Source of the DNA: Antedon mediterranea
Lineage: Eukaryota > Animalia > Echinodermata
NCBI RefSeq assembly: GCF_964355755.1
Contig: NC_092673.1
Span: 16,464,948-16,528,947 of the forward strand
Length of the DNA: 64,000 bases
Direction of reading: 5' to 3'
The position numbers and the translations under genes are program-made. Position 1 is the stretch's first letter, and each line of letters begins with the position of its first letter. Below are positions 20,401 to 64,000 of this stretch, piece after piece. The notes beneath the pieces are model-generated. The model had not been told where the DNA came from. It was given only the letters and a program-made list of their open reading frames with translations, and did no database searches.

Positions 20401-21380
20401 GCCTTGACAGAATGCTGCAAGATGAAGTTATAGAGCCAGCACCTGGACCACACACCTGGATCAATCCGATCGTACTTGTACCCAAAAGCAATGGTAAAAC
20501 GCGAATGGTTGTGGACATGCGTGAGGCAAACAAAGCGATAGGACGCGAGAGGTACTTAACGCCAACGCTAGATGATATAATTTGCAAGCTAACAGGCGCT
20601 ACCGTGTTTAGCAAAATCGACATGAACAGCGGGTACCAACAACTACTTCTGCATCCTGATTCGCGCAACATAAGTACATTCTCTACGCACAAAGGACTGT
20701 ATCATTACAAGCGATTATTTTACAGTGTCAACGCTGCGCACGAGATCTTCAATGAAAAAGTCAAAAACATGCTGAGCGGAGTACAGAACCAACTCAACAT
20801 AAGTGATGACATTATAATTTTTGGTAAAGACACTAAGGAACATGATGAAGCTTTAAATGCTGTATTTGAATGTTTGCGTGATTCTAATGTTACAGTAAAC
20901 AAAGATAAATGTGAATTTTACAAGTCAAATATCACGTTTTTTGGCATGGTTTTTTCCAAGGAGGGAATTTCCCCAGATCCTAGGAAAGTTACTGCGATCA
21001 AAGCATTAAAGGCCCCAGAATGCATTACAGAATTGCGTTCCCTTTTTGGTATGGTTAATTTTCTCAGTCGGTTCATTCCAAATTATGCCACTATTACAGC
21101 ACCTATGAATGGGGTGAAGAGCAAAACAAAGCTCTAGAAATGCTCAAGGATAAGCTCAATTCTGATTGTGTTATGGCATATTTCGACCCCACACAAACCA
21201 CCGATGTTTATGTAGACGCTAGTCCAGTGGGTCTAGCTGGAATGCAAGATGACAAAGTCGTTTTCTGTGGTAATAGGTCATTAACAGCCACTGAAAAAAG
21301 GTATTCCCAAATTGAACGGGAGGCATTGGCCATAACATGGGCGTGCCATTATTTTCGACTGTTTCTAGTTGGCAAACCAT
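17433..21380 (+). mobile_element. Ty3/Gypsy (Mag-like) LTR retrotransposon, 3'-truncated and decayed
   Basis: 5' LTR TGTAG...TTACA at 17433-17614. PBS TGGCGACGAG at 17616 (tRNA-Ser type). Frameshifted gag from 17641 with two CCHC knuckles near 19685-19785. pol from 19848 has protease IDSGS, RT ISDD and RNase H VDAS...YSQIEREALA. Integrase and 3' LTR are absent. Confidence 0.93.
18086..19467. mobile_element. Non-autonomous hAT element inserted in Gypsy gag
   Basis: TIRs CAGTGGTGGCGCCAG / CTGGCGCCACCCCTG and 8-bp TSD GATCCTAC (18078-18085, 19468-19475). Excision rejoins gag as ...ALRDPTLTLDKILEYARALE. Confidence 0.92.
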
Positions 21381-21532
21381 CTAAAATGCACTGCTTCCCC
21401 AGGGCTGTTAGTCAAGGGTACTTGTGTGGGGTATGCAGTAATACGATAGTTTAGTTTAGTTCTGTAGTTATAATGCTTTATATTTCACATGACAGAAGAT
21501 TGTAAAAATCTGTTGAATCAGTAAGTTTGTCT

Positions 21533-24042: not shown

Positions 24043-24635
24043 AATCTTCATGTAGTAACACCAGCATACAGGGTCATCTTCATTCAGTAACACCAGCATA
24101 CAAGTCGTCTTCATTCAGTAACGCCAGCATACAGGTCATCTTCATTCAGTAACGCCAGCATACAGGTCATCTTCATCAGTAACACCAGCATACAGGTCAT
24201 CTTCATTCAGTAACACCAGCATACAGGTCATCTTCATTCAGTAACACCAGCATACAGGTCATCTTCATTCAGTAACACCAGCATACAGGAGTCATCTGCA
24301 TGCAGTAACACCAGCATACATCTCATCTTCATTCAGTAACACCAGCATTTATACAGGTCATCTTCATTCAGTAATATGCAGGCATACAGGTCATCTTCAT
24401 TCAGTAACGCCAGCATACAGGTTATCTTCATTCAGTATCACAGTCATCTTCATTCAGTAACACCAGCATTTATACAGGTCATCTTCATTCAGTAATATGC
24501 AGGCATACAGCTCATCTTCATTCAGTAACGCCAGCATACAGGTCATCTTCATTCAGTATCACAGTCATCTTCATTCAGTAACACCAGCATACAGGAGTCA
24601 TCTTCATGCAGTAACACCAGCATACAGGTCATCTT
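24043..24635. repeat. 31-bp minisatellite, about 18 copies
   Basis: Unit CAGTAACACCAGCATACAGGTCATCTTCATT. Confidence 0.95.
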
Positions 24636-24697: not shown

Positions 24698-24784
24698 AAG
24701 AGAATGTGTAGGCTTACTTTTACACTAGAAGCTATCGGCATTAATAATTGTTAAATGAAGACACTGTATTTTTGCAATGGAAAG
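24698..24784 (+). CDS. Exon containing the proposed start codon (ATG GAA AG| at 24777)
   Basis: TATTTTCAG acceptor and AAAG|GTACGT donor. Phase 2 matches the next exon. Confidence 0.65.
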
Positions 24785-27700
24785 GTACGTTTTTAACAAT
24801 TATTTCAAACAAAAATAACCAGCTCCAATATGTGTTGATATTATTGACATATTGAAATATGTAAAAACAAATTAAAATGTTTGAATAGTTATATTGACAT
24901 ACATATATATACATAACATACTTTATAATCAGAATTTATAGTTCAAACAAAAAGAAAACACTTTGATTTTAAGATATTCTTTTGAGAAAAATACTTCAAA
25001 CTTTCTTAAAAGATTATAAAATCCAAAATTCTTTCTTTCTTTCTTTAAAAATTATGAAATCATAAATATTACAATTAAAGGGCTTATTCTCATTAAATAT
25101 AATAATAATAATATTTCCATCAATCATCATTCTCATTAAATACACGGGTATAAATGGATTATTTCTTACATTTTGACAGGAAACATTTGGTAGAAGCTTT
25201 GTCAAGGAATGATTTGAAAACAATTAAACAAATCTGTAAGACGCAACCAGGTCTTCTGAAATCTATCGATGAGGTATAAAAACAGATATATTTTTATAAT
25301 ATTATCAAAGAAGAAATTCTTTTCATTAAAGTTTAAAATTATAGAGGATGTAATTTTCTTTAATAGTTTAAATCTTTTTTACATACTGAATTACAATTCT
25401 TTTGCATTATCACACTGATGATGGAAGCTTACCTCTATGTACTGATTAACAACATTAGGCTAAAAATAATAATATAAATACACACTGATGATGGAGGTAT
25501 AACCTGCATGTACTGATTAACCACATTAGGCTAAAAATAATAATATAAATACACACTGATGATGGAAGCTTACCTCTATTTACTGATTATCCATATTAGG
25601 CTAAAAATAATAATATAAATACACACTGATGATGGAGGTATAACCTGCATGTACTGATTATCCATATTAGGCTAAAAATAATAATATAAATACACACTGA
25701 TGATGGAAGCTTACCTCTATGTACTGATTATCCATATTAGGCTAAAAATAATAATATAAATACACACTGATGATGGAGGTATAACCTGCATGTACTGATT
25801 AACCACATTAGGCTAAAAATAATAATATAAATACACACTGATGATGGAGGTATAACCTGCATGTACTGATTATCCATATTAGGCTAAAAATAATAATATA
25901 AATACACACTGATGATGGAAGCTTACCTCTATGTACTGATTATCCATATTAGGCTAAAAATAATAATATAAATACACACTGATGATGGAGATAACCTGCA
26001 TGTACTGATTAACCACATTAGGCTAAAAATAATAATATAAATACACACTGATGATGGAGGTATAACCTGCATGTACTGATTAACAACATTAGGATAAAAA
26101 TAATAATATAAATACACACTGATGATGGGTGTATAACCTGCATGTACTGATTAACCACATTAGGCTAAAAATAATAATATAAATACACACTGATGATGGA
26201 GGTATAACCTGCATGTACTGATTAACAACATTAGGCTAAAAATAATAATATAAATACACACTGATGATGGCGGTATAACCTGCATGCACTGATTAACCAC
26301 ATTAGGCTAAAAATAATAATATAAATACACACTGATGATGGGTGTATAACCTGCATGTACTGATTAACCACATTAGGCTAAAAATAATAATATAAATACA
26401 CACTGATGATGGAGGTATAACCTGCATGTACTGATTAACCACATTAGGCTAAAAATAATAATATAAATACACACTGATGATGGGGGTATAACCTATGTAC
26501 TGATTAACCACATTAGGCTAAAAATAATAATATAAATACACACCGATGATGGGGGTATAACCTATGTACTGATTAACCACATTAGGCTAAAAATAATAAT
26601 ATAAATACACACTGATGATGGAGGTATAACCTGCATGTACTGATTAACAACATTAGGCTAAAAATAATAATATAAATACACACTGATGAAGGAGGTATAA
26701 CCTGCATGCACTGATTAACAACATTAGGCTAAAAATAATAATATAAATACACACTGATGATGGGGGTATAACCTGCATGTACTGATTAACAACATTAGGC
26801 TAAAAATAATAATATAAATACACACTGATGATGGGGGTATAACCTGCATGCACTGATTAACCACATTAGGCTAAAAATAATAATATAAATACACACTGAT
26901 GATGGGGGTATAACCTGCATGTACTGATTAACAACATTAGGCTAAAAATAATAATATAAGTACACACTGATGATGGAGGTATAACCTGCATGCACTGATT
27001 AACCACATTAGGCTAAAAATAATAATATAAATACACACTGATGATGGAGGTATAACCTGCATGTACTGATTAACCACATTAGGCTAAAAATAATAATATA
27101 AATACACACTGATGATGGGGGTATAACCTGCATGTACTGATTAACCACATCAGGCTAAAAATTATAATATAAATACACACTGATGATGGAGGTATAACCT
27201 GCATGTACTGATTATCCACATTAGGCTAAAAATAATAATATAAATACACACTGATGATGGCGGTATAACCTGCATGCACTGATTAACAACATTAGGCTAA
27301 AAATAATAATATAAATACACACTGATGATGGGGGTATAACCTGCATGTACTGATTAAAAACATTAGGCTAAAAATAATAATATAAATACACACTGATGAT
27401 GGGGGTATAACCTGCATGCACTGATTAACCACATTAGGCTAAAAATAATAATATAAATACACACTGATGATGGGGGTATAAACTGCATGTACTGATTAAC
27501 AACATTAGGCTAAAAATAATAATATAAATACACACTGATGATGGAGGTACAACCTGCATGTACTGATTAACCACATTAGGCTAAAAATAATCATCCTCAT
27601 ATATAAATAGGCCTACACACTGATGATGGGGGTATAACCTGGATCAACAACATTAGGCTAAAAACTAAAAACATTAATAGAATATGATTTTCATTAAGGC

Positions 27701-30700
27701 AAATGGTTTAAATTAAATTTGTTATCGTTAACATCTAACTTAACTTAATTATGATATTGGTTTCATTGGGTGTTAAAAATCAGTACCGAAAGTAAGCACA
27801 TTAACAAAAATCAAATTTGATTAAAACAAACCAAATAACTAAATAGTTATATATGATTTATGATAACTGATTTAAAGTGTACAGTTACCTATCATATAAC
27901 ATAAATCTTTAATTTTCTTAATGAACAAAAAAAATCTATATTTTTTATATATTCAGTCATTAATCAACAATTATTGACAATGGTCTAATTAATTGTAAAT
28001 ATGAAATAAAATGCGACAACTACTAAACAACTAAAAATGTTTATGTTAAAAAAATTAATAGAATCTGATTTTAATAAAAAAAAATAATTATTAATTAAAA
28101 ACCTGCTCCCTCCCTTACCTTACAAAAAATGCTTCTGTCAGTCTATCCAGCTAATTATAAACATGGCATTAAACTACATCTGGAGATCCGTTTCCAACCT
28201 AGGATCTTTTTGTGCAAACATTTTGCCGCAAAATGAAGAGAAATGTAAACAATGTTTTGTTAGTTTTCAAAATCTAAATTGTGTGAGTAATGCAATTTAA
28301 AAAAGAAAGGCAATATGAAATTATTCTTTTCGAACTGAATGCTTTTAAGAAAAGTTCCGTCTCTTATCTTATGACTTTTTTTGAAAAATGAATTCTCGTT
28401 AAAATATAATATACTAGTAAGTGCTCACAGATGCTTCTTGAATACATGAACTTTGGTAAATAACGGAAAATTGTCTAAGTCGCACTGTACACAAAGCAAA
28501 TAAATTCATATCTGGGGAATAAATATACACCTATTACCTTAGAAATAGTGACGTGTCTCATTCAGCATGGGGCACCAGTAGCATTGCAAAATGAGGTAAA
28601 TGTACAGGGATTTGCTAGTGTAATAGGCTAACATTCTATAGATATGCTGTGGTAAACCATTCTATTTTGTTCTACTCATTTATTAATAATGATAATTATG
28701 ATTATTTATCACAATATTTAGCAGCAATTGTTGTTGTTTGTATTGACAAAAAACAAACAATTTCACATAATGTCTGTTGTCAGTATTTATAAACTTCATT
28801 ATGATTCCTTTCCAGAATGGTGACACTCCATTACATTACTATCTGAGGCATGGATACCCTACCTTAGAAATAGTGACGTGTCTCATTCAGCATGGGGTAC
28901 CAGTAGCATTGCAAAATAAGGTAATGTACAGGGATTTGCTAGTGTAATAGGCTAACATTCTATAGATATGATGTGGTAAACCATTCACATATAAACTTCA
29001 TTATGATTCCTTTCCAGTATGGTGAAACTCCATTACATTCATATTTATGGAGTACTGTACCTACCTTAGAAATAGTGACTTGTCTCATTCAGCATGGGAC
29101 ACCAGTAGCATTGCAAAAGAAGGTAATGTACAGGGATTTGCTAGTGTAATAGGCTAACATTCTATAGATATGCTGTGGTAAACCATTCTATTTTGTTCTA
29201 CTCATTTATTAATAATGATAATTATGATTATTTATCACAATATTTAGCAGCAATTGTTGTTGTTTGTATTGACAAAAAACAAACAATTTCACATAATGTC
29301 TGTTGTCAGTATTTATAAACTTTATTATGATTCCTTTCCAGAATGGTTACACTCCATTACATTTATATCTGGAGAGTGGATATACACCTACCTTAGAAAT
29401 AGTGACGTGTCTCATTCAGCATGGGGCACCAGTAGCATTGCAAAATAAGGTAATGTACAGGGATTTGCTAGTGTAATAGGCTAACATTCTATAGATATGC
29501 TGTGGTAAACCATTCTATTTTGTTCTACTCATTTATTAATAATGATAATTATGATTATTTACCACAATATTTAGTAGCAATTGTTGTTGTTTGTATTGAA
29601 AAAAAAAAACAAACAATTTCACATAATGTCTGTTGTCAGTATTTATAAACTTTATTATGATTCCTTTCCAGTATGGTAACACTCCATTACATTCATATCT
29701 GAGGAGTGGACCTACCTTAGAAATAGTGACTTGTCTCATTCAGCATGGGGCACCATTAGCATTGCAAAATAAGGTAATGTACAGGGATTTGCTAGTGTAA
29801 TAGGCTAACATTGTATAGATATGCTGTGGTAAACCATTCTATTTTGTTCTACTCATTTATTAATAATGATAATTATGATTATTTACCACAATATTTAGTA
29901 GCAATTGTTGTTGTTTGTATTGACAAAAAACAAACAATTTCACATAATGTCTGTTGTCAATATTTATAAACTTTATTATGATTCCTTTCCAGAATGGTGA
30001 CACTCCATTACATTCATATCTGTTGAGTGTATCTACTGCACCTACCTTAGAAATAGTGACGTGTCTCATTCAGCATGGGGAACCAGTAGCATTGCAAAAT
30101 AAGGTAATGTACAGGGATTTGCTAGTGTAATAGGCTAACATTCTATAGATATGATGTGGTAAACCATTCTATTTTGTTCTACTCATTTATTAATAATGAT
30201 AATTATGATTATTTACCACAATATTTAGCAGCAATTGTTGTTGTTTGTATTGACAAAAAACAAACAATTTCACATAATGTCTGTTGTCAGTATTTATAAA
30301 CTTTATTATGATTCCTTTCCAGAATGGTGACACTCCATTACATTCATATCTGTTGAGTGTATCTACTGCACCTACCTTAGAAATAGTGACGTGTCTCATT
30401 CAGCAAGGGGAACCAGTAGCATTGCAAAATAAGGTAATGTACAGGGATTTGCTAGTGTAATAGGCTAACATTGTATAGATATGATGTGGTAAACCATTAT
30501 ATTTTGTTCTACTCATTTATTAATAATGATAATTATGATTATTTACCACAATATTTAGTAGCAATTGTTGTTGTTTGTATTGACAAAACACAAACAATTT
30601 CACATAATGTCTGTTGTCAGTATTTATAAACTCCATTATGATTCCTTTCCAGGATGGTGACACTCCATTACATTCATATCTGAGGAGTAAATTTAAACCT

Positions 30701-33700
30701 ACCTTAGAAATAGTGACTTGTCTCATTCAGCATGGGACACCAGTAGCATTGCAAAATAAGGTAAATGTACAGGGATTTGCTAGTGTAATAGGCTAACATT
30801 ATATAGATATGATGTGGTAAACCATTCTATTTTGTTCTACTCATTTATTAATAATGATAATTATGATTATTTACCACAATATTTAGCAGCAATTGTTGTT
30901 GTTTGTATTAACAAAAAACAAACAATTTCACATAATGTCTGTTGTCAGTATTTATATTACCTCATTATGATTCCTTTCCAGTTTGGTGACACTCCATTAC
31001 ATTCATATCTGAGGAATCGTGGATATCCACCTACCTTAGAAATAGTGACGTGTCTCATTCAGCATGGGACACCAGTAGCATTGCAAAATGAGGTAAATGT
31101 ACAGGGATTTGCTAGTGTAATAGGCTAACATTCTATAGATATGATGTGGTAAACCATTCTATTTTGTTCTACTCATTTATTAATAATGATAATTATGATT
31201 ATTTACCACAATATTTAGCAGCAATTGTTGTTGTTTGTATTGAAAAAAAACAAACAATTTCACATAATGTTTGTTGTCAGTATTTATAAACTTCATTATG
31301 ATTCCTTTCCAGTATGGTAACACTCCATTACATTTATATCTGAAGAGTGCATATACACCTACCTTAGAAATAGTGACGTGTCTCATTCAGCATGGGGCAC
31401 CAGTAGCATTGCAAAATGAGGTAAATGTACAGGGATTTGCTAGTGTAATAAGCTAAAATTCTTTAGATCTACTGAAATAAACTATTCAGTGAGAGAAAAA
31501 AGTAAGCCCATTAACAAAAATCAAATTTTATTAAAACAAACCAAATTAAAATAATAACTAAACAGTTATATATGATTTATGATAACTGATTTAAAGTATA
31601 CAGTTATCCATCACATAACATTAATGTTTTTTCTTAATGAACAAAAACAATCTACTTGTAATTTTTTATATTCAGGTGAATCTATATATAATCAGTATAA
31701 TTTTGTTTAAATACTTTTTACCATAAAATAAATATATATTGCTCATATGTAGCTGTAAAGATAACAACAATTGAAAATGGTCTAATTAATTATAAATATG
31801 AAATAAAATGAGACAACTACAGTATGTTGACAAATAATAGAATAGCAAACAAAAATGTTTGTGTTATTGTTAACAAAATTAATAGAATCTGATTTTAATA
31901 AAAAAGAATTATTAATTGTTAATAACTTGCTCCCTCCCTTACCTTCCAAAAAAATACTTCTGTCAGTATATCCAGCTAATTACAGTTTGAATATGGCCTT
32001 TTAAAGAGATCTTTTTCCAGCATTTTTTTTTTTGCAAATATTTTGCCACAAATGGAAGAGAAATGTAAATAATGTTTAGTTTATAGTGGTTTCCAAAATC
32101 TAAAATTGTTCGAACAATGCAATTAGACATTTTTTTATATTCAGGTGAATCAGTATAATTTTGTTTACATATTTTTGACCGTAAAACAAATATAAATTGG
32201 TCATATGTAGCTGTAAAGATAACAATGATTGACAATGGTCTAATTAATTGTAAAGATGAAATAAAATGGGACAACTACATTGATTAATAATAAAATAACA
32301 AATAAAAATGCTTATGTCAAAAAAATTAATAGAATCTGATTTTAATAAAAAAATAATTATTAATTAATAACCTGCTCCCTCCCTTACCTTACAAAAAAAT
32401 GCTTCTGTAATAGTAATAGGCTAACAATCTTTAGATCTGATCCATGGTAAGATATTCTATTTTGTTCTCATTTATCAATCATGTCAATTAGGATTATTGA
32501 CCACATTATTTAGCAGTAATTCTTGCTATGGTTTGGGTTGACAAAAAAAAACCCAATTTCACATAATGTCTGTTGTCAGTATTATACACCAACAATATTG
32601 CAAAATAAGGTAATGTACAGGGATTTGCTAGTGTAATAAGCTAACATTATATAGATCTGCTGAAGTAGACCATTTAATGAGAGAAAAAAGTAAGCACATT
32701 AACAAAAATAAAATTTGATTAAAACAAACCAAATAAAAAAATAACTAACTAGATTTAAACTCGTCACTACGGACGAGTTAGGTTATCCGCAGCGCAAAAG
32801 GCACGTGCACGTCATACGTTAGAATATTACGCGCAGAAAAACGTTTACACCATTGAAAAAATGATAGTGCGCCCTCTATTTTGCGTCACGTCTGAGTATA
32901 TACGGTATACACTATATACTATATACGTATAACCATACAGTGCAGAATAGTGAAAAGAAGTGACCAAAGTTATTAACGCTTTTGAACATGATGACGTAAT
33001 AACAATTTTAAAAATTGTAAATCATGCGAAAGATAATTGATTGACCTAAACAATATAAAAAATGGAGGGCAATGGAATACGGATAATTGGAGATGCGCTC
33101 TATTAAATGTGATGAGCTATGACGAAAGAGACAAAAATCCTATTATTTATATTCGAGTGGCCATACGATGACGTCACAATGTCCGGTTAGTCATATTGAT
33201 GCATGATTTGATATCTGCAACTCATCTACTACCAGAATATGTAATTTTAAAAAAGTTCACGACGTAGTTTAGAATTTATGACTGTTTAAAAAAAGGCATA
33301 ATTTCGACAAATTTTTGAACTTTTTCATCAAAAATGCGCGTAAAATGTTTAATTCTACGTGCTCGTATGACGTGATTTTAAGTCGAAATTGTTTGAAAGT
33401 TGGTAAATTTTCTAAAAAAGACAGGAAAAACAAAAATCAAGCAAAAAAATGATGTTTTTGCGCTACGTGCGCACGTGCGCGTAAAAAAATTGCGCACGCG
33501 TGGGAATTTTTGAAATGCTCAAAATGACATGAAACGCGTAGAAAGTTGATTAGATATTGATTTTTCGCATTTTGAAATTTTAAACGCGCGTAAATTTTTG
33601 TGAAACATGCCATTTTTAATCCATAGAAAGTTTGCGCTTGATATGACTTAAAGTTTCACCAAGTTTCAATACAAAACGACTTTTAGTTTTTAATCAATCA

Positions 33701-54700: not shown

Positions 54701-57700
54701 TGCGAGGTGGTGAACAGATGCGTGATAGCGGCTAACAGTGGATAAGAAGGTTGAAACCCGAGGACTCACAGAGAATTCACCTCTGCACAACTTTTCGTAG
54801 GCTTGGACACATGGCTTACTGTCTGTCAAAATGTGTGCCTGATGTGCGGATTGTATGATAAATGGACTAAAGTGTTTTGTGGATGCGGCAATTGAAAGAG
54901 CTTCGACTTCACATGGTAACCAGGTCATTTGTCGTCCGCGTAGTTTAGCGCTATAAAAACCAGCGAGTAATGGTTTGCTGTCACGGGAGACATACAAGGT
55001 GGAAGCTATGCCATATTTCTTGACGGCGCCATCAGTTACAATCCACAATTGGTCACTTGCTCGTGGGATGGCAATCGTGTGTGGTGAGTTGAGGATAGAT
55101 TGCGCACTTGCGAAACTAGCGAGCAATTCGTCAGACCAGTCTATCTTCTCTTGGGATTGTCGTCCAGCGACAGCAGCTTCAAGAGGTGACAAAATAGGTG
55201 CACATCGCGGGAGAACGCGAGATAGCATCTTAAATGCGCCAATGAACGATCGTAATCCGGTCACGGTGACTGGTCTCGGGCAGCTAGATAATGTTGAGAT
55301 GCGATGAGAGCTAGCTCGGAGTGTCCCTTGGCTCCATATCCACCCAAGAATGTTAGTAGTCTTAGGACAGATAACGGTTTTGGTAGCGGATAAATGTAGT
55401 CCTGAGTTGGATAGTGCATGAAGGATTCTTCTCCATACGTTCAAGACCTCTTCAACTGTATTACCGCCGCAGTAAAGATCATCAGCGAGTTTTGTAGCTG
55501 AACCTTCTTCTAAAAAATCACCCACTACTCTGCTTAGAAGTTCTTCCAATGCGGTTTCTGACCCCGGCATGCCCATTGCGCAACGGGTATATACCCTGAC
55601 ACCGTGAAATGGAGTGACGATTCCGCAATATTTCATAGACGGTTTTGAAAGTGGAATTTGGTAGAAAGCGTTGGTAAGATCCGTTGTTATAATGTATTTC
55701 CACTGTCCGATTTTAAGAAGAGTGGAGTCGACGTCAGGCATGAGTGACGGTTGTGGTTTGCTGTACCTGCCGACATCGGCAAAGGATGTCACTAATCTGG
55801 AACCGCCGTTGGGTTTCTTCACGAGGAATGACGGATTGAGATATTCTACAGCAACTCCAACATCTTCTGGACGGGCAAAAACTCCAAGTGTTTCGAGTTC
55901 GTCGAACTTGTGTTGTAGTTCGAGGAGCTTGTCTCTTGCATACTGAGGAAGGCGACCTTTGCGTTGTGGGGGTTGGACTGGTCCCATATTTACGGTGGCA
56001 ACAAACGGGCCTACAGCACCATTATAACCTTTAAAGGAAGGGTTGAAAATGTCATCATACTCCTTGTGGAGGCTAGTAAATTGTTCGAGTATGTTGCGAG
56101 GTAGAATGCTATCCGGATCCAGCTTAATGTTATCAGAGAAGCAAGTGTGAACTGTTGTAGTGCTAAGCTTTGGTGGTTTAATCGGGGATGATGAAGTGTC
56201 AGGTAGGTTAGGTGTAAACACAGGGCTAGCTTGGCAAAACTGTTCATTGCGTGAAAGCACTTTGGGTTCGTCTGACAGGTTAGGAATGCGAATTCGTCCG
56301 GCAACGCACGATATGATACGTGGTTCAGGCCAAACATGAGATGGCAAAGATGTTTTCGAGATTGGTGCATCAACGCGAGGTTCAATAGCAACAGTGTCTA
56401 TGTGGGTGAGGTCATTTGGGAGTGAAAGTTCAATGTAACTACCTGGCCATATCACAGTGCGTGTTGAGGGAGCACGGAGAACATGAGCGCGTCTGATCGA
56501 GTGGCATTCGGACAAAGTGGTAGGCAAAGAGCCATAGATGTATGTTGTGCCATCGGCCATAACTACTTGACGCTTAGCGGGGCGGATAGAAATATCATTC
56601 TGTTCCATAAACGGTGTACCAGCGAGTAGCTCAACGTCGAGGTCCTTAACGACGAGGCCATTGAAAGTCAAGTCTTTATTGTCACGTGTAAAGGTGACGT
56701 TTGTCTCGCCCATAACCTGTAACTGCGAAGATCCATCGGCTTGGTGTGCTGATTGACTACTGGGCTTAATCTGAACGCCAAGTAAACGTGCAGTTGATTC
56801 ACGGATCATGTTGCCAGTAGCACCGCTGTCTATAGTAATATGTACGGTATTATAGCCGTGAAAGGCTTCGAGATATGGCGACTGACGTACCTGTATTCGA
56901 AGAGCTGAGGATGAACCAGATGGTGGGTCGTTGGGATCCTCGACACGGGTGGAATCCTGTTCATAGCAGTAACTGTCGTCATCGTCGAAGATGTTTGCGG
57001 CCCGGGCACGTGCCATGTAGCGGCGGTCGCGTTCCGGAAGGAACTTGCACTCACTGAGAAAGTGGCGGTCTGGTCGTCCACCTTGTTTACAAAATGGGCA
57101 GCATTTATTTGGTTTGTTATTGTATGTCTGAGTATTGAATGTCTTAGGTGGGTAGCGGGAACGCGGTGGTTGAGAAGGAAGAGAAGCTGGTCTTTGAAAC
57201 GGTAAAATCGCTGAACGCATGACTCTTGTGTCATCGGAAGTTTTGATTTCTTCTAATAGGGAAGTCATAGCTTGTGAAATTTCAGGCTTGATGGACGCCA
57301 GTGTACGTGAGCGAAGCTCTGTGCCATACCTCTGTTTGACGAGTTGGGGAAGTGAAGGGTGAACTAAGCGTAGCCATGTCAGTGTGAGTAGGTTTTCAAG
57401 TGAAGGGGTGAGTTCTTCGTCTTCCGTAATAGGTTGATTGTGGTGAGTTATAACACTGTCTGCTTGAAGAAGATTGTCATCAATGAAAGCTAGCAAACGT
57501 TGGTATAGATCCTCTGGGCGTTCATCTGGGCCCAGACTAATGTTAGCAAACTCTAAGAAATGAGCCCCACTAGATTGGAACCCGTAATGTAATCGTATGC
57601 ATTGCCAGATGCAAGGTAGTGATGTGGATGATTTTACGATAGTGTTTCTTGAGATTACAGGGCAATAGTTAGCAATTTGACCTAACATTAGTTCCAACAT

Positions 57701-60700
57701 GGTTACTTTCTGTTGTGCAGATAAAGCATTAGCTACGTTGTCTTCAAAACCATTGTCATCAGTGAACCCTCGGAGTGGGGAAGCTCTGGTTTTCTTGCCC
57801 CACGAGAAACCTTCCACCAGGAAATTGGCGAATTTAGTGTCTAATGTTAACGTGTACATGAGGTTTTGACGCCAATTCTCAAATGTGTTTATTGTTTCGT
57901 TTTTACCTAAGCACCATTGCTTGGGGGCACGATTGGATGCAGCCATTGTTGTGGTGTTTATACAAAGTGTACTGAATGAAACGTTATTCCTCTATTGACG
58001 AACGGAGAATTACAGCGACTGCAGTATGCGCCGGTCAGTTGCTCGCCTGTGGATGTGCGATAACGGCAGTATAAGTACTATAGTTATAGGGCTAGGCCTA
58101 GGTCTGCCTCCTGTGTAGACGGTAAGTCGATATTCTTGTGGGCAGTAAAATGTGTTGCGTAGGATTTTCGTCTCCCGACGCTGCCACCACGCCAACTTGG
58201 TAATAATATAGACAATACTCACACAGATAATACAACTGAATAACCGATACTTGAGGTATAACAATAATGTAACTTTATTAACAAAGCAAACAGTAAACAT
58301 TCGTATGTAAAACAACAACAACGAGGGGGCTCATATGGAGCGCCGTACGTGACATAACAGCCAAACTGGCGCTAATACATTTTTTTTTCATTGCATGAAT
58401 ATAAAATATCCATGCCTAATGTTAAAATTGGGTGTCTAGAAAACTCAGATCTAGAAAATCAATATATTATATGAGTATTATTAAAACTGATTACTCTGTG
58501 TACATTTTCTTACTAATATTGTAACATGTAGTCAACATGTAAATCATAACGGAAATACAGTGCACGTTACCGTTAAAATGTAGGCTTAAAAATTAGGTAT
58601 GTATAAGTTGGTGTGGGTACGAGTTGGTTGAGGTACGAGTTAGCCAAGTTGGGAATAGGTATGAGTTATTTTGGGTACGAGTTGACCACTTCTAGCCTAG
58701 TAGGGCCAGGCTGACCCCCTTGTGATACATTGCGATAGCGCCCACACATTGAGCCTTGAATTGAGTTTGTAATAGCTAGACTAGGCCTAAATGCTAAGCC
58801 TATATTTTAAAAGGTGTATACTGTATTTCTTTATGATTTAAGTTGTAGGCCGCTACTACAACTTATAATATTTATTATTAGTAGTAAGAAAACGTATAAT
58901 ACTGTAGTATTTCAAACAAGCTACCCTCTGATTAATAATGGAACGATCCATTTGACAATCTGGGTTTTCTAGTTTCATTCTGGAACTAGAAAACTCAGAT
59001 CTTGATATCTGAGTTTTATAGATCTAGAAAAGTCAGATATCTGAGTTTTCTTGATCTTAGCTTTCTAGACACCAGTTAAGATTACAAATTTTCAGTAGCT
59101 TTTTGCCACAAATCAAAAAATGTGTGTATACGGCCAAACAGCGTTGAAACACCGGTTTATGTCAGATCACCGAAGTTAAGCAATGTTGGGCCCGGTTGCA
59201 TTCACGGCGGGTGCTGTATACCAGAAAGCGATGGTGTAATGATAATATCAGACTAGCATGTAATAGGCATGGGTTCAAATCTATCGGTACCATACAACTG
59301 TATCCTTAGGCAAGATGCTCTCATTGCCTCGTCCTTCGGATTGGATGTAAACTCGTCTCGTGATCTGGTAGGCGCTGCACTGCTGCCTAATCCGAATTTC
59401 CTCAGTTTTCAGTTAGGCTTGAGGACAACTATTATTATAATACCTTTACCTTTTACCTTTATGAAAGTCTTTATTCATTCATTCATTCATTCATTCAATC
59501 TTTTATTTCGGAATCTCTGGTCCATAGAAAGTAAAAATTACATATACTAGATGGTACGCTCGCTTCGCTCGCGTACCATCTAGGTCGTACCCACAGCTGA
59601 TGGTTCTCGAATACACAGTAATTTCAGCGTAACAAAACTGGCGATTTCAAATGTACGTACCGCGGGACTATAATACATAGTCGTTTACAGAAACGAATAA
59701 ATAGACACGATGATTTATGTATTCAACTAAAATTAGCACCTTGAGAATTACTTCCGAAGGAGAAACTTACCACAAAATGAGTCCAAATTTTTGAATTTGT
59801 GTTTTGTATGTAACATTAGGGTTGAGGGATGGGAAAGCGGATAGGTACAAAGAGGAACAATTTTTAAATATATTCTTTATCCACTCAGTAACGAAATATT
59901 TGTTTCATGTTTTATAGGCCTATAAATAATATACCTCTAAATACAGTAAAACATTTGTCAGTATAAAGTTTATTTGTATATCTAACAGTTGAGCCTATCC
60001 ACAATCTCAGTAATAAAGTTTATTTGTATATTTTTCAACAGTACGAACATTCACAGTAAGAAATGCTCGATTCAAATGAGGACAAAAAATAGTTAGGTAT
60101 TTAATTTACAGTATTGTCAAAGTATTGCAAGTTTATTCTCAAAGGGCCCATATATTTACCTACCGTATGTGTTAAACCAAGGGCTCATAAATTTACCTAC
60201 TTGTGTTAAACCAAACTCTGGCAGAGTGAGAGATTGGGATGTTCCATTCATCGCAAATCAATACATTTGTATAATCGTATATTAAATCTATCAAAATAGT
60301 ATTTTTTTAAGAAAATCGGCCTGTCTTCAACATTATGATGCTGTACTCTAGCTGTTCAACCGGTTTTCAGCTATTAAAAACAATTATCGTAGGAGGAGAT
60401 CGGAAAATGCGAAGCCTCCTCGCATTTTTCTGGCGGATATTTTTCAAGATGGACATCCATTAGACAGTGTATACCAAGATCGGAAAACACCCCTATTTGG
60501 GGCAAATCGTTGAACCTAAATTCGTTTTAATCGTCAATAACTAATTATCTAACTTAATTTAATTAGTAAACAGGGTTACATCAGGTGGTTAAAATCAGTA
60601 CCGAAAGTACGAACCAACTTTATATACCATCGAGTAAAAATTCTAGAAGTAAGGCGCGATTTACCGAATTTTGCCCTTACGTAAATTTATATATAGATAT

Positions 60701-63700
60701 GAAATAAAATAAACAAGACTAATTACTACTACTCATCTCAGGATGGCATTCCACCTGGAGAGCATCTTCGACTTAACTAAGACGTTGCTTTTAATCGTTG
60801 AGACTAAAACATTTTCGCTTGCATTTAGTCTACCCATCAGGCCATATATTGATTTTCTTAACAATTCATAAAAAGAAGGAATTCTACATTCCGTAAACAT
60901 AAGGCTGGCACTGCAATGTCGAGGCATTTGTTGCAACAATACAATTTAAAATAATGTTTGTTCATATGTTGTCAGAATATTAATCTGTCAATATTTGAAT
61001 ATTTTTGCAGATGTTCATAACACTACAAGCACTATACATTGTTGTGTTTGATCTCAGTAAACCATTGGATGATCTTGCTACTTTCATTGATTCTACTGGA
61101 GTAAGTATTTCTAGAGCATGGCAGCAGTAAGGCATTGTGATTGAACAAGTCTTCTAATTTATAAGAACATGCATTTTATGCATTAAAATTTTAATACCTT
61201 CCAAATAAGATGTACAGTAGTAATGAATGCTTTCAAAAACTAACCATTTCAAGTTTAACTGTGGTTAAGTGTTCTCATAATGTTTTTTTTTTTACAGGAA
61301 ACGTGTAAACATCATTGGACCAATCTGCAGTTCATATTATCTTACATCCTGTCAGTTTATTCTCATAGTCGTATTGTGGAAGAAGATGAAGAGAATGAAG
61401 TTCATAAACCAACTATCCTTATTGTGGGTACACATAAGGGTAAACTTGGTGAGACTGAAGAACAACAAAATGTTGAGGTTAATGCTTCTTTTTTTTTTCT
61501 ACATTATTAAAGATAGCGATAACCAAAGATACGTTGCTGCTCTAAAAGTAAATTTAACAAAAATTAGAGTACATATTTATAACTTAAGCCATCACATAAA
61601 AAGTTTAAATTTAAATCTTACTTAAAATAAATTACAGAATTTACACATTCGTATATAGATGTAAATCTTTATTTACAAACAGGCAGAAAAGATGTTTAAA
61701 AAGATTCAAGATGTGCTTAAAACAAAACCATATGGAAAACATGTGTACCAATATTTTGCCATTGAAAACAGCCAAGAAACGACAGATAAGAGCTTTAGTG
61801 ATCTCAAACAAGTTATTGATGACCTTATGAAAGCTTTAGAAAAGGAAATTCCTTTAAAGTGGATGCGTTTTCGATGTGGACTAGATGATCTAAGGAGAGA
61901 AAAACAGCCCTCTTTTTCTTTGTGTTCTTTAGAAGAGGTAAAGGTTATTTTTTTTTTTTATTTATTTATTTATTCGGTATATAAAAATATATTACAAAAC
62001 GACAGTCAAGGACTGAAATGAAATGTATTACAAATGACTAAAAATTAGTTAAAATTGCTATAAAAATAGAAACATCTTAATAAAATTAGATATTGTACCA
62101 TACAATTAAAAACATTCTTCAAAACATTTTAGGAAATAATATTGTATAGAATATTTATCAAGTATCTATTAAAAAGAAAGTCTAAATATAATTTTCAAAA
62201 TGATCTTTATACTGGAATTTGTCATAACCATTTAAATAACAATATTCAAGATCATAATTTCATCTTTTATATATGTTGCCATTGTTTTATTTATAATTAT
62301 TACTAAATACTGACCTAATAATTGACAAAATTCCTGATAATTGCTTAGTTTTTTTTCGTGCCACTATCGAATAACATTGTTTTTAAAACATGCACAAAAA
62401 TAATAGAAAAAAGTATACTTTGTATAATTATTTATTATTACATCAATTAATATGAATTTATATATGTAACATTTATTTATATTCTCTACACTGAATTACC
62501 AAAAAGTGTTATTTACTAAAACAATTGATGCTGTTAAAGACCAAAATAATGTTGGTAATAAATACATACATACATATTACAAAAACTGAATAGGATTTCA
62601 TTAAAAAAAATCTGATTAACACTAATTTTTAAAGCTCAAAACCCTGGCAAGTAATAATGGTATTGTTGACAAAAAACCCAAATCAGTCCTGCTTATAAAC
62701 TTGCACGATCATGGTGAAATTGTTTACATGCCTGACAACGAATTACTAAGCAATAAAGCAGTGTTAGATCCAATGAGACTGGTTGAAATTGTTACGACAT
62801 TTGTAACTGTGGTTCCCCCAAAAAAACATGTAAGTAGACTCATGTAATGTCTTGCATTTGAAAAACGTGTTGCAGTAACATAATTACTCCTGTTCTGTGC
62901 TAAATTTCTTGCTGTTCTATATATAAGTATGCTGGAAGACATCATTTGCAATTGACTAAAGTTTTAATTATCTTACTTTCATTGTATTATAATTGAAAAA
63001 GTGAAAAGCACAGCAACAAACTACTGTAATTTCACAACTGCATTATACACATAACATTCATATTATTTATTTATTCATATTATAAAAGTTTACTATATTT
63101 GTTGACTATTTCCAACATCCTTCCTGCCTCCCTCTTGATTCCCTCCTGCCACTCTGTAATAACAACACAAAATATCAATTTTTTTTTAGTTCGGTATGTT
63201 TAATGAATCTTTTGATAAGCTTGACAAAGGCATACTGGAAGAAAGGTTGTTGCGAAAATTATGGAAAAAGCGTAAAATTGACGACGGAAAGAATTTTGAG
63301 TTTCTTGTAGCACTGATGATCCAATTGGGTTTCATTTGTGAAAGGAAGACAACCAGCAGCCAAAATATGGCAAGTACATCTACAGTAGGTTTTGTTCAGT
63401 TATCATTTCTAACATGTTATATTTTGCATGCAAGCATATGTGAAAAAAAGATTTTTTATATGATACCTAATTGGTGAAATTTAAAAAAAAAGATGTTTCT
63501 AATATACAGGAAATAATCTTTAGTTTTCTTTTTAAAATTAATCTAAATAGCATTTTACAAATCAAATTTCAGGAATCAGTTGTGAAGCGATCTTTTTTTG
63601 TGCCACTACGCCTTGCTTTCAAGACATCAAGTGAAGTGAAACCAGTGCCTGATGAATTTCCAGCTATCAGTATCTATTACGACTTTAAGGGATATCTTCC

Positions 63701-64000
63701 AGATGTATTGTTTCCATATATGATTATTGATTTCCTCAACAAATTTCAAAAGAACGGTGTTGACCCAATACTGTCATATAATCATGCTGAACTTTACTTT
63801 GACCAATATCATCATGTGACCTTATCTCTTGTCAAATTTGTGACTACGGAAGATGAAAGAAATTTCTTGTTAAAGGTAGGTCTACTGTATCATATATTTT
63901 CTTGTGATTATGTCATAATTTAGTCTAAGTATAAACTCAAATTCAGATATCAAAACATAAATTTTTTTTTTTTTTTCAGGTGACTATTAAAAGAACAAAT
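24777..64000 (+). CDS. Ankyrin repeat-Roc-COR (Roco family) protein, multi-exon, 3' incomplete
   Basis: Hand-built join: 24777-24784, 25180-25273, 28816-28920, 29018-29122, 29342-29449, 29672-29773, 29993-30103, 30323-30433, 30653-30760, 30982-31092, 31313-31420, 39601-39685, 43587-43679, 48807-48954, 49359-49444, 49782-49840, 50643-50742, 51767-51924, 61011-61100, 61298-61477, 61683-61937, 62635-62829, 63190-63384, 63573-63875, 63980-64000. All GT-AG, phases consistent, 3039 nt without a stop. Motifs: GxTPLH ankyrins, G1 GQEGVGKT, G2 TDGI, G3 WDHGGQ, G4 VGTHK, COR IPLKW and LHDHGEIVY...VLDP. Confidence 0.9.
25180..25273 (+). CDS. Ankyrin N-cap exon (RKHLVEALSRNDLKTIKQICKTQPGLLKSIDE)
   Basis: TTTTGACAG acceptor and GAG|GTATAA donor. 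Ends in phase 0 and reads into GxTPLH. Confidence 0.8.
25411..27660. repeat. 71-bp intronic minisatellite, about 31 copies
   Basis: Unit CACACTGATGATGGAGGTATAACCTGCATGTACTGATTAACCACATTAGGCTAAAAATAATAATATAAATA. Confidence 0.97.
27790..28503. repeat. Left copy of a ~700 bp intronic duplication
   Basis: Matches 32689-32748 joined to 33911-34540. More diverged partial copies lie at 31500-32410. Confidence 0.9.
28503..28595 (+). pseudogene. 5'-truncated ankyrin exon without acceptor (SYLGNKYTPITLEIVTCLIQHGAPVALQNE)
   Basis: 3' part of the unit and its donor are intact. The acceptor and GxTPL are replaced by flank sequence. Confidence 0.85.
28816..31420 (+). CDS. Array of 9 intact one-repeat ankyrin exons (102-111 nt, phase 0-0)
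   Basis: Each unit is ATTCCTTTCCAG|xGxTPLHxYL-variable-PTLEIVTCLIQHGxPVALQN(K/E)|GTAA. Introns are 219-222 bp except one of 97 bp. Confidence 0.95.
32410..32650 (+). pseudogene. Degenerate ankyrin unit with most of the exon deleted
   Basis: Diverged intron copy followed directly by ATTGCAAAATAAG|GTAATGTACAGGG. Confidence 0.75.
32749..33910 (-). mobile_element. Non-autonomous Helentron/Helitron2-like element
   Basis: CTAG, hairpin AACTCGTC-n6-GACGAGTT and subTIR GGTTATCCGC at one end; palindrome GGTTATCCGC-n5-GCGGATAACC at the other. Inserted in an A-run with no clear TSD. Empty site visible near 27840. Confidence 0.8.
35101..38682 (+). pseudogene. Tenth ankyrin exon (DGNTPIHVYFRRSRLIPTLKIVTCLIQHG / APVALQNK) split by a LINE
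   Basis: Acceptor at 35100, 5' part 35101-35188, 3' part 38660-38682 with intact donor. Confidence 0.9.
35189..38659 (+). mobile_element. CR1/L2-group LINE, 5'-truncated, ORF2 with stops and frameshifts
   Basis: PHD-like CxxxFHxxC...WCCxxC, APE motifs (HVNARSL, VTETHL, GGGVCLY, CYRPP, GDTN, SDH), RT motifs (QSGFR, DIQKAFD, GVPQGSILGP, YADD), and AATAAA plus (TTAC)n tail. Confidence 0.95.
39205..39506. mobile_element. Small MITE
   Basis: Inverted termini ATGGCTCAAACATTT / AAATGTTTGAGCCAT. Confidence 0.6.
39601..39685 (+). CDS. Ankyrin C-cap exon (DGNTPVSVLESKRWIGDQRKTEILNFFK)
   Basis: TTTTAATAG acceptor, phase 0 in, A|GTAAGT donor (phase 1). Confidence 0.85.
41340..42480 (-). mobile_element. 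Decayed LINE RT fragment (RTE-X-like)
   Basis: Minus-strand peptides GIQQGSPLPSSLFNIFMN, LPILIYGSETWG and AVKSELGR. Confidence 0.75.
43587..43679 (+). CDS. Linker exon (NLPSTVDEQFQTQFQKQTSDEQKTKLLKPES)
   Basis: TTTTTTAG acceptor and G|GTAAGT donor; phase 1-1, open. Confidence 0.8.
45191..45594 (+). mobile_element. Solo LTR
   Basis: TG...CA ends, perfect 5-bp TSD ATGGC (45186-45190, 45595-45599), internal TATAAAA and AATAAA. Confidence 0.8.
47013..48588 (-). mobile_element. Helentron-like element nested in the A-run near the end of the outer copy
   Basis: Same terminal hairpin, subTIR and palindrome structure; internal homology to the outer copy. Confidence 0.8.
48807..51924 (+). CDS. Roc domain N-terminal exons (G1 48807-48954; G2 49359-49444; 49782-49840; D/N-rich 50643-50742; G3 51767-51924)
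   Basis: YNEALKDGSVPVNLGMLKVIGQEGVGKTCL, HVLTDGI and FNIWDHGGQLIYHGLHR; consistent phases. Confidence 0.92.
49863..50374. mobile_element. MITE with ~50 bp TIRs (ISL2EU/Harbinger-like)
   Basis: AGGGTGGTTTCGCAACCATACGAATACGATAACGAAAACGGATACGTCAC and its reverse complement, with AT on both sides. Confidence 0.85.
50840..51160. mobile_element. Kolobok-like MITE relic
   Basis: TTAA...TATTGTCCCC / GGGGACATATTTAA ends. The left part resembles 4023-4130. Confidence 0.45.
52044..52603. mobile_element. Palindromic non-autonomous element
   Basis: ATTTGATTGGAGGATTGTGGG (52071) is inverted at CCCATAATCCTCCAATCAAAT (~52557). Confidence 0.6.
52685..58371 (-). mobile_element. Intact Gypsy-type LTR retrotransposon (Troyka-like) in a Roco intron
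   Basis: Two 182-bp LTRs (52685-52866, 58190-58371) that read identical by eye, with CG...CG ends. 3-bp TSD CTA, PBS TGGTGGCAGCG (tRNA-Leu type), and a purine tract next to the 3' LTR. Confidence 0.95.
53039..57946 (-). CDS. Gag-Pol polyprotein, 1635 aa (gag, CCHC, protease, RT, RNase H, integrase)
   Basis: CPFC...H...C knuckle, IDSGA, DLTNAFYQ and LADD, VTDGA, H..H..C..C, and integrase AADV / RTDP / IAEK. Order RT-RH-IN is Gypsy-type. Confidence 0.95.
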   Translation of the reverse strand: MAASNRAPKQWCLGKNETINTFENWRQNLMYTLTLDTKFANFLVEGFSWGKKTRASPLRGFTDDNGFEDNVANALSAQQKVTMLELMLGQIANYCPVISRNTIVKSSTSLPCIWQCIRLHYGFQSSGAHFLEFANISLGPDERPEDLYQRLLAFIDDNLLQADSVITHHNQPITEDEELTPSLENLLTLTWLRLVHPSLPQLVKQRYGTELRSRTLASIKPEISQAMTSLLEEIKTSDDTRVMRSAILPFQRPASLPSQPPRSRYPPKTFNTQTYNNKPNKCCPFCKQGGRPDRHFLSECKFLPERDRRYMARARAANIFDDDDSYCYEQDSTRVEDPNDPPSGSSSALRIQVRQSPYLEAFHGYNTVHITIDSGATGNMIRESTARLLGVQIKPSSQSAHQADGSSQLQVMGETNVTFTRDNKDLTFNGLVVKDLDVELLAGTPFMEQNDISIRPAKRQVVMADGTTYIYGSLPTTLSECHSIRRAHVLRAPSTRTVIWPGSYIELSLPNDLTHIDTVAIEPRVDAPISKTSLPSHVWPEPRIISCVAGRIRIPNLSDEPKVLSRNEQFCQASPVFTPNLPDTSSSPIKPPKLSTTTVHTCFSDNIKLDPDSILPRNILEQFTSLHKEYDDIFNPSFKGYNGAVGPFVATVNMGPVQPPQRKGRLPQYARDKLLELQHKFDELETLGVFARPEDVGVAVEYLNPSFLVKKPNGGSRLVTSFADVGRYSKPQPSLMPDVDSTLLKIGQWKYIITTDLTNAFYQIPLSKPSMKYCGIVTPFHGVRVYTRCAMGMPGSETALEELLSRVVGDFLEEGSATKLADDLYCGGNTVEEVLNVWRRILHALSNSGLHLSATKTVICPKTTNILGWIWSQGTLRASSHRISTLSSCPRPVTVTGLRSFIGAFKMLSRVLPRCAPILSPLEAAVAGRQSQEKIDWSDELLASFASAQSILNSPHTIAIPRASDQLWIVTDGAVKKYGIASTLYVSRDSKPLLAGFYSAKLRGRQMTWLPCEVEALSIAASTKHFSPFIIQSAHQAHILTDSKPCVQAYEKLCRGEFSVSPRVSTFLSTVSRYHASVHHLAGSANMPSDFGSRNAQPCDAPSCQICSFVQQTEDSVVFQVNIKDVISGSTKLPFTSRPAWLAIQSECPVLRRTHAHLSQGTRPHKKITNIKDVKRLLRFSTIAKDGLLVVRRDEPLAPVRECIVVPRDVLEGLLTALHLRFDHPSCHQLKTIVRRYFFALDMDASVERISARCHHCAALRSIPHTVIPQSTGDPPDAVGTTFAADVIKRERQLILVMRECVTSFTVACIIDSERHDSLRDGLIRLCIELRPLDGPHAVIRTDPAPGFASLVSDKLLAHHRIMIELGRTKNPNKNPIAEKAVREVEDELLTQEPTGGLVTPTMLKITMACLNSRLRSCGLSSREMWTQRDQFTNDQIPLSDSQLIISQHKRRLANHAHSERSKAPTGRFPASSDIDVGDLVYVLADRNKSKARHRYLVTSVDNTWCNIRKFIGSQLRSTAYKVKRTECYKVPSSPSPRSQHYYQEDSNSDDDYQIPEPPRTEIPIELSTPADHAYQVDPLPAGTDSEFLTPAASDDVRPLTDLHKVVIPPPVIEPRRSTRSHRLPTHLNDFVLDK
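58431..59073. mobile_element. MITE with CTAGAAAACTCAGAT subterminal repeats
   Basis: TIRs GGTGTCTAGAAA / TTTCTAGACACC. Confidence 0.7.
59126..59460 (+). mobile_element. 5S rRNA-headed SINE with a tRNA-like segment and a Deu/Nin-like central domain
   Basis: 59126-59221 aligns to animal 5S rRNA (TACGGCCA...GATCACCGAAGTTAAGCAA...GGGTGCTGTA) with an internal deletion. It is followed by GGGTTCAAATC, TCCTTAGGCAAG, GTCCTTCGGATTGGATGTAAA and a (TTTACC)n tail. Confidence 0.75.
59472..60940 (-). mobile_element. RTE-X-like LINE 3' end, interrupted by a Helitron
   Basis: ORF 60733-60939 (PRHCSASLMF...LRKSIYGLMGRLNASEN) and a (TGAA)n tail at ~59475-59497. Confidence 0.65.
59547..60697 (-). mobile_element. 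Non-autonomous Helitron
   Basis: Minus strand reads A|TCTATATAT...CTAG|T, with terminal hairpin TAGATGGTACGC-n11-GCGTACCATCTA and no TSD. Confidence 0.88.
61011..64000 (+). CDS. Roc C-terminal and COR exons (61011-61100, 61298-61477, 61683-61937, 62635-62829, 63190-63384, 63573-63875, 63980-end)
   Basis: ALYIVVFDLSKPL, PTILIVGTHK, FAIEN, EIPLKW, LHDHGEIVY, VLDP, LMIQLGFIC and FFVP; all phase 0. Confidence 0.92.

Follow-up and report, generated by a model that had tools for sequence, protein, structure and literature searches.

Invertebrates lack antibodies, and the way in which they generate a diversity of receptors is still debated; a gene of the crinoid Antedon mediterranea offers a compact test of this question in a deuterostome. 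The gene lies in a 64,000-nucleotide stretch of contig NC_092673.1 (positions 16,464,948 to 16,528,947, forward strand), hereafter the window, and encodes a row of ankyrin repeats, one per exon, followed by the Roc and COR domains of the Roco proteins. Is this row of repeats a varied recognition surface, and if so, how is it varied? We found that the introns and the repeat framework of the array are homogenised while the positions resembling the binding positions of DARPins (designed ankyrin repeat proteins) are not. Judging from its sequence, the gene is a real and probably active member of the Roco family, and we consider it likely that this open-frame crinoid Roco gene encodes a germline-diversified intracellular recognition receptor, in which the ankyrins would be the sensor, Roc-COR the switch and a predicted death-fold domain the effector.

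An open Roco gene with one ankyrin repeat per exon

Our model of the gene comprises 25 exons running from 24777 to 64000 on the forward strand and encodes 1013 residues free of stops, with GT-AG at all introns. The reading frame stays open across the 25 exons despite a long interspersed nuclear element (LINE) and a long terminal repeat (LTR) element within the gene. The exons encode, in order, the N-cap, nine ankyrin repeats, the C-cap, a linker, Roc with an acidic insertion, and COR. The 3' end of the model is the window end, with COR continuing past 64000 and the C-terminus lying beyond.

24777..24784, +, first coding bases (ATG, 8 nt, phase-2 donor); gene model, start shared with A. mediterranea P0031
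25180..25273, +, ankyrin N-cap exon, phase 0 at its end; gene model, residues 1-34 identical to P0031 at 32/34
28816..28920, +, ankyrin cassette exon 1, 35 codons, 105 nt; gene model, Pfam scan
29018..29122, +, ankyrin cassette exon 2, 35 codons, 105 nt; gene model
29342..29449, +, ankyrin cassette exon 3, 36 codons, 108 nt; gene model, Pfam scan
29672..29773, +, ankyrin cassette exon 4, 34 codons, 102 nt; gene model
29993..30103, +, ankyrin cassette exon 5, 37 codons, 111 nt; gene model
30323..30433, +, ankyrin cassette exon 6, 37 codons, 111 nt; unit alignment
30653..30760, +, ankyrin cassette exon 7, 36 codons, 108 nt; gene model, Pfam scan
30982..31092, +, ankyrin cassette exon 8, 37 codons, 111 nt; gene model
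31313..31420, +, ankyrin cassette exon 9, 36 codons, 108 nt; gene model, Pfam scan
39601..39685, +, ankyrin C-cap exon, entered in phase 0 and left in phase 1; gene model, 19/28 identical to P0033
43587..43679, +, linker exon; 30/31 residues identical in P0006, P0018 and P0019
48807..48954, +, Roc exon with P-loop (G1); Pfam scan, motif check, 49/49 identical to P0006
49359..49444, +, Roc exon with switch-I region; gene model, paralog alignment
49782..49840, +, Roc insertion exon; gene model
50643..50742, +, Asp/Asn-rich low-complexity exon inside Roc; gene model, P0007 and P0033 have tracts like it
51767..51924, +, Roc exon with G3; Roc E 0.0067, motif check
61011..61100, +, Roc exon; gene model, paralog alignment
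61298..61477, +, Roc exon with G4 (Gly replacing the usual Asp); gene model, motif check
61683..61937, +, Roc end and COR start; gene model, paralog alignment
62635..62829, +, COR-A exon; COR-A E 1.2e-5
63190..63384, +, COR exon; gene model, paralog alignment
63573..63875, +, COR exon, 101 codons; identity of up to 93% with Roco proteins of A. mediterranea
63980..64000, +, first bases of a further COR exon, truncated where the window stops; gene model

The nine intact ankyrin exons (28816-31420, forward strand) measure 102 to 111 nt, or 34 to 37 codons, and all are phase 0-0, with an identical 15-nt acceptor and a GTAA donor. None of the nine carries a stop or frameshift; their four lengths are each a multiple of three, while the introns have indels of 1, 3, and 1 nt. 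Mean identity over the 29 non-loop positions is 89%, with hypervariable codons beside them. The Pfam Ank family matched the four exons scanned with E values from 4e-7 to 4e-4, three above the cut-off and one short of it by 0.1 bit. An assembly artefact was ruled out, given that the units differ from one another and the same repeat type is present in annotated proteins. Each 220-nt array intron holds a short inverted repeat (e.g., 29500-29560) that could form a stem; the folding energy of the unit is only ∼1.7 standard deviations below that of shuffled sequences.

Four broken units, all on the same strand, lie around the intact array, among them a tenth exon that was split by a LINE of ∼3.5 kb and keeps its acceptor in full.

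28501..28596, +, ankyrin exon copy, 5'-truncated, without acceptor or TPLH part
32584..32674, +, remnant with the 3' end of an exon (32584-32625), donor and intron start
35101..35194, +, 5' part of the tenth ankyrin exon, which keeps its acceptor and is broken by the LINE
35195..38659, +, LINE-like retrotransposon inside the tenth exon; Exo_endo_phos E 7e-7, endonuclease open reading frame (ORF), reverse transcriptase with stops
38660..38682, +, 3' part of the tenth ankyrin exon, with the donor
38807..38843, +, remnant exon end, similar to the type of repeat in paralogs P0002 and P0052

An initial annotation of the window, made from the letters alone, had placed ankyrin caps at 25180 and 39601 on either side of the array, and the gene model has both where they were claimed. 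Its units of ∼330 bp, nine intact and several broken, agree with our counts and with Tandem Repeats Finder (period of 330 bp, 7.6 copies, 94% matches), except that the first unit has a shortened intron and is therefore spaced just 202 bp from the second. It had further held that any subset or order of the exons stays in frame; this applies to subsets, which splicing could produce from phase 0-0 exons, but a new order requires rearrangement of the DNA. Ankyrin genes of animals commonly hold a single repeat in each exon, so that the symmetry of the exons is probably not new by itself. A complete Roc followed by COR had also been claimed, and the Roc exons were found, but COR extends off the window. 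In the domain scan suggested for Ank, Roc, and COR, three ankyrin exons passed the Pfam cut-off while the single Roc (E 0.07 and 0.0067) and COR-A (E 1.2e-5) exons stayed below theirs. Paralogs P0006 and P0018, which are 79% alike over the tandem, score above the cut-offs for both Roc and COR. In the window model Roc is directly followed by COR, the tandem that defines Roco proteins, and the G1 P-loop and G3 motifs are present. The Asp/Asn-rich exon (50643-50742) between switch I and G3 is of very different length in paralogs, e.g., P0013 and P0002.

Variation is concentrated at DARPin-like positions

Across the nine exons, 21 of the 33 alignable codons are invariant at the DNA level. The variable sites are codons 1, 3, and 8, a loop of 3 to 6 codons after helix 1, and one linker codon. 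Aligned with the repeats of solved DARPins, which vary before and after a Gly and after helix 1, these positions are equivalent. The randomised positions of DARPins sit on the concave binding face (PMC8229355, PMC8683736, PMC3602593). An AlphaFold model of paralog P0031 (11-row alignment, predicted local distance difference test [pLDDT] score of 89) shows ankyrin helix pairs, with the longest loop less confident, and superposes on DARPins with a template modeling score of ∼0.8. A single-sequence fold of P0033 reached a pLDDT of 38 and was not used.

We computed unit statistics on units 2 to 8, the seven of nine that have a full intron. Nucleotide diversity reached 0.21 at the DARPin-like codons against 0.041 for the framework and 0.025 for the intron, making the predicted binding codons ∼8-fold as diverse as the intron. 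Segregating columns numbered 8 of 18, 9 of 81, and 14 of 217, respectively, with Fisher P values, generous given that the copies are non-independent, of 4e-5 for the DARPin-like codons against the intron and 0.002 against the framework, and of 0.22 for framework against intron. Within the first 12 codons only 1 of 15 distinct variant codons is synonymous (P of 0.019 in a simulation that took the copies as independent, again a generous value). The initial annotation had proposed a varied recognition surface, and the variation in the array lies where DARPins vary.

The units have also traded sequence. All four gametes were present at 19 of 28 informative site pairs, which are therefore incompatible with descent without exchange among the copies. 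Exons 5 and 6 are one base and one residue apart, while the introns that follow them differ at 6 sites. Together, these two results make the units mosaics rather than the tips of a simple duplication tree. Of the routes to variation named beforehand, gain or loss and conversion are in line with the mosaic units and with the copy numbers in paralogs, while splicing is annotated as a one-repeat skip in one paralog.

An expanded Roco family in A. mediterranea

The paralogs expected from a Roc-COR search do exist, in an expanded Roco family. A search with the 101-residue COR exon returned 30 proteins, 26 from A. mediterranea and 4 from Anneissia japonica, with 24 of the 30 on one contig of 36.2 Mb; the product of the window gene itself is not among them. 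The best-matching paralog shifts along the gene, from P0031 at the N-cap (32/34) to P0006 over two Roc segments (98/98) and further along to P0020 (72/85), P0010 (62/65), and P0001 (94/101), which suggests exchange between paralogs.

We built a Roc-COR tree of 23 rows, keeping alignments that span at least 330 query residues. The window gene falls within a 17-row Antedon clade (100/98), and a distant clade unites P0036 with the first Roc-COR tandem in P0002. The window cap and first repeat are identical to P0002 at 47 of 69 positions, whereas the distant-clade Roc-COR of P0002 matches at 124 of 393 (32%). The same ankyrin module thus stands on two Roc-COR clades that are only 32% alike, and it was probably transferred from one Roco clade to another. 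Relatives in the wider clade have other N-termini, a death effector domain (DED) in P0009 and a kinase in P0024, and Anneissia P0037 joins a related Roc-COR to ordinary, non-homogenised ankyrins. P0002 carries two Roc-COR tandems from different clades, perhaps as a fused model, and P0002, P0009, and P0026 have hydrophobic, membrane-anchor-like stretches after COR.

The repeat type was sought with an exon profile against 1.84 billion representatives and by name look-ups. Eight A. mediterranea genes, spread over three contigs, were found to have it, in 2 to 8 copies each and with other loops; the homogenised array of a ninth gene, P0070, which sits on a fourth contig, has a different framework. 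In 24 repeats of 8 A. mediterranea proteins, positions 1, 3, and 8 and the loop are variable as in the window. The first five residues of P0033 are the translated end of the window's intron, which implies the same exon-intron unit in that gene. When another 163 proteins were scanned, Roc matched 19 of them, and several had near-identical ankyrin repeats. Long, partly near-identical ankyrin arrays precede Roc in the ENA proteins P0055 (69 motif hits, mean best identity of 0.98), P0173, P0071, and P0185, possibly parallel cases in other organisms.

A predicted effector and a possible mechanism

Matches to DED were found in 9 of the 20 relatives scanned, 8 of them C-terminal and below the cut-off and 1 N-terminal and above it. 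P0052, with 8 repeats, and P0036, with 4, are full-length ANK-Roc-COR proteins with a DED-like C-terminus (E 7e-6 and E 2e-7, respectively).

A receptor of this kind could be diversified as follows. Units would be added, removed, and homogenised by unequal crossing-over and by gene conversion, both inside the array and from one paralog to another, while selection would hold the binding-face codons different. Each gene or allele would then present its own ankyrin surface between fixed caps, much like a natural DARPin library, and occasional skipping of a single exon would yield extra forms. By analogy, ligand binding would alter the nucleotide or dimer state of Roc-COR, and the switched Roc-COR would engage the C-terminal DED-like domain in cell-death or immune signalling.

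Several observations weigh against a diversified recognition receptor. Over the 33 alignable codons the ratio of nonsynonymous to synonymous polymorphism (pN/pS) is a modest 1.6 (0.099/0.060), and the DARPin-like site set was picked after the alignment had been seen, which, like the non-independence of the copies, makes the P values above generous. The framework of paralog repeats also varies beyond the loops, in helix 2 and the linker. Many RefSeq paralog models are partial and perhaps chimeric, which weakens the arguments from mosaicism and copy number. The C-terminal DED matches all lie under the Pfam threshold, and the window gene's own C-terminus is past the window. The region is rich in satellites, so that repeats expand here whatever their function. 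The G4 motif of GTPases carries a guanine-binding Asp, which is replaced by Gly in the window gene, P0006, P0018, P0009, and P0024 and retained in P0052, from the other Antedon clade, and in Anneissia P0037. Guanine-nucleotide switching may therefore be altered; the change concerns nucleotide specificity and not homology.

Splicing as a probable second layer

RefSeq proteins XP_071957837.1 and XP_071957838.1, isoforms X1 and X2 of one paralog gene, are identical save for one 36-residue repeat, which is bounded, according to the annotation, where the window exons are bounded. Single-exon skipping is probably a second, smaller layer of variation, annotated so far in one paralog. No RNA run appeared among those listed in a search of sequencing runs, a negative that has no bearing on expression. 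Among the matches listed from four sequencing runs over 31200-44000, none was a splice joint; the contigs span introns and exons, and read depth over this interval is no measure of copy number. Perfect (Watson-Crick only) antisense matches of the kind that would allow Dscam-like docking were no longer than in shuffled sequences in four of five flanking regions, and the 12-nt match of the fifth lies in a remnant of the array intron itself.

A bolder form of the proposal, which we think unlikely, would make dozens of feather-star Roco loci a natural DARPin library that trades hypervariable ankyrin exons in the germline and is further spliced cell by cell (at most 512 forms at this locus), giving an anticipatory repertoire of intracellular receptors whose Roc-COR switch signals to a death-effector domain; an invertebrate deuterostome would then have a variable receptor system based on repeats. 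The rival explanation that survives best, although we hold it distinctly unlikely, is that combinatorial splicing is the main diversifier, with cells picking subsets of the nine exons (again at most 512 forms), maybe upon challenge, as in Dscam1 or the ROCO genes of Ectocarpus. The uniform 0-0 phase and near-identical splice sites would permit this, the dead tenth exon has a full acceptor and must be skipped, a one-repeat skip is annotated in a paralog, and brown-algal ROCO genes have up to 9 splice forms (PMC11378527). However, the flanks hold no docking or selector complementarity beyond that of shuffles in four of five cases, paralogs are annotated with up to 8 repeats together (P0052), and just one such isoform pair turned up.

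Comparison with known receptor systems

A germline-diversified receptor would have its closest counterparts outside animals. In brown-algal ROCO genes each exon encodes one leucine-rich repeat (LRR) in 72 nt at phase 2, and they have been described as having spare exons that are inactivated, some of them on the reverse strand, as being under selection on the concave face, and as yielding splice variants (Zambounis et al. 2012, PMC3341825; Teng et al. 2024, PMC11378527). The crinoid gene shares with them Roc-COR placed after the repeats, one repeat per symmetric exon, a tandem family, and variation at the predicted binding face; its four broken copies may correspond to their inactivated exons, and the skip annotated in a paralog to their splice variants. 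It differs in using ankyrins rather than LRRs, phase 0 rather than 2, and 102 to 111 nt rather than a fixed 72; moreover, its exon length varies in the loop, whole introns are homogenised, no reverse-strand spare exon was found within the window, the crinoid paralogs have a DED-like tail, and the host is an animal.

Fungal NOD-like receptors (NLRs) of high internal conservation (HIC) contain near-identical WD40, ANK, or TPR repeats, 80 to 100% alike, with hypervariable sites and intergenic exchange, and are said to occur in animals (PMC13449251). As in those of the HET-E type, the crinoid repeats are near-identical apart from a few hypervariable positions, and their ANK lengths are non-canonical; sequence is exchanged inside a gene and from gene to gene, putative effector modules are swapped, and there is an association with transposons. 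Its switch, however, is a Roc-COR GTPase and not a NACHT or NB-ARC ATPase, its sensor is N-terminal, and each repeat has its own exon. The initial annotation had regarded this animal ANK-Roc-COR gene as an analogue of the ROCO proteins of brown algae and of fungal NLRs, a view upheld by the gene model and by this comparison; by analogy, the gene is taken to work like the algal and fungal diversifying receptors, and it is a member of neither group. Bacterial Roc-COR proteins, the AP-GTPase counter-invader systems, pair fast-evolving LRRs with variable effectors (PMC8195603).

The crinoid gene resembles both these prokaryotic systems and DAPK1 in its fast-evolving N-terminal repeats, Roc-COR, and, to judge from its paralogs, a predicted variable C-terminal effector, although the bacterial sensors are LRRs and the crinoid ones ankyrins. 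DAPK1, an ANK-Roc-COR protein with a death domain, is conserved and single-copy. The window gene, unlike DAPK1, lacks an N-terminal kinase: none was seen ahead of the ankyrins in upstream ORFs of at least 70 residues, judged by eye, and the model begins at the N-cap, as do P0002, P0031, and P0032. Dscam1 has mutually exclusive Ig exons selected by RNA pairing. The crinoid gene shares tandem duplicated exons encoding a recognition domain with the arthropod gene, but has additive exons, and perfect antisense matches gave no sign of docking. Engineered DARPins have the same fixed N- and C-caps, self-compatible internal repeats, and concave-face variable positions (PMC8683736, PMC8229355, PMC3602593), whereas the crinoid array is natural, has a loop of variable length after helix 1, and is coupled to a GTPase. 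Roco domains have also been reported with TIR in Aplysia (PMC9334734).

A receptor design known so far from brown algae and fungi is thus likely to exist here in an ankyrin-based, animal form. No description of an ankyrin-cassette Roco in animals was found in titles and the beginnings of abstracts, most subscription papers and supplements falling outside this coverage and the supplementary lists of PMC13449251 and PMC8195603 being places that could name some. If our interpretation is correct, Roc-COR has been paired twice with an exon-per-repeat device, with LRRs in brown algae and with ankyrins in crinoids; Roco proteins would gain support as NLR-like sensors beyond LRRK2 and DAPK1. The array, at ∼2.6 kb, can be typed by one long amplicon of DNA or cDNA, and the loop that follows helix 1, with its variable length, represents a natural design for ankyrin binding that deserves a structure.

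What such a receptor would recognise is a separate matter. Diversification for a role other than against pathogens, be it telling self from non-self, keeping selfish elements in check, or cell death during development, comes next among the rivals, and we rate it as improbable. Fungal allorecognition NLRs bear the same sequence signature (PMC13449251) and Roco proteins have many non-immune roles (PMC11378527), whereas the expansion of the family, the swapping of modules, and the death-fold partners suit conflict with invaders (PMC8195603); the targets are inseparable with these data.

Transposons, satellites, and repeat dynamics

A recognition receptor would here be encoded amid many other repeats, including the following within the gene.

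25411..27591, no strand, minisatellite of 71 bp with 31 copies, within the intron ahead of the array; Tandem Repeats Finder
52680..58388, -, Gypsy-type LTR retrotransposon in a Roc intron; ORFs, Pfam scan

The Gypsy-type element has one open 1650-residue frame (protease, reverse transcriptase, RNase H, integrase) between 204-bp LTRs that are 97.5% alike. The LINE (35195-38659) shows stops within its frame, a short repeat of the target site, and a tail of simple repeats.

A third rival is that neutral repeat dynamics alone made the array, an ankyrin exon having been caught in a minisatellite-like expansion within a repeat-rich region and the gene perhaps decaying. Three other satellites, the LINE, the LTR element, and the four broken units in or near the gene fit this account, as does the modest pN/pS; we nevertheless find it quite improbable, given the ∼8-fold excess of binding-codon over intron diversity, the nine of nine exons without stop or frameshift, and related homogenised arrays with different frameworks in genes on four contigs. 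Lastly, somatic DNA rearrangement or conversion building different arrays per cell, in the manner of VLR or SpTrf, is extremely improbable: near-identical units are a good substrate for exchange and somatic change has been proposed for algal genes (PMC13449251), but the gene is complete in the germline already, with its frame intact, and an inverted spare exon was not found in the window.

The remaining observations concern the surroundings of the candidate receptor gene. Minisatellites of 125 bp (1-481), 89 bp (13749-17433), 31 bp (24044-24635), and 71 bp (25411-27591) were found, those of 89 and 71 bp being nearly CpG-free. The low CpG of the array (0.11) was set aside, as these two satellites are equally low and the copies are non-independent. 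Segments at 27835-28504, 31499-32408, and 33905-34539 are duplicated at 75 to 91% identity and form a higher-order repeat around the 330-bp units. The LINE sequence (35195-38659) is also present in contigs of other sequencing runs. Fragmented gag-pol-like frames at 17600-21450 (forward strand) were judged by eye from the ORFs to be an older LTR element. Several copies of a repeat family, 73 to 77% alike, occupy 32750-33900 and 45050-48650, and the copy at 32750-33900 has very many contig matches in all four sequencing runs.

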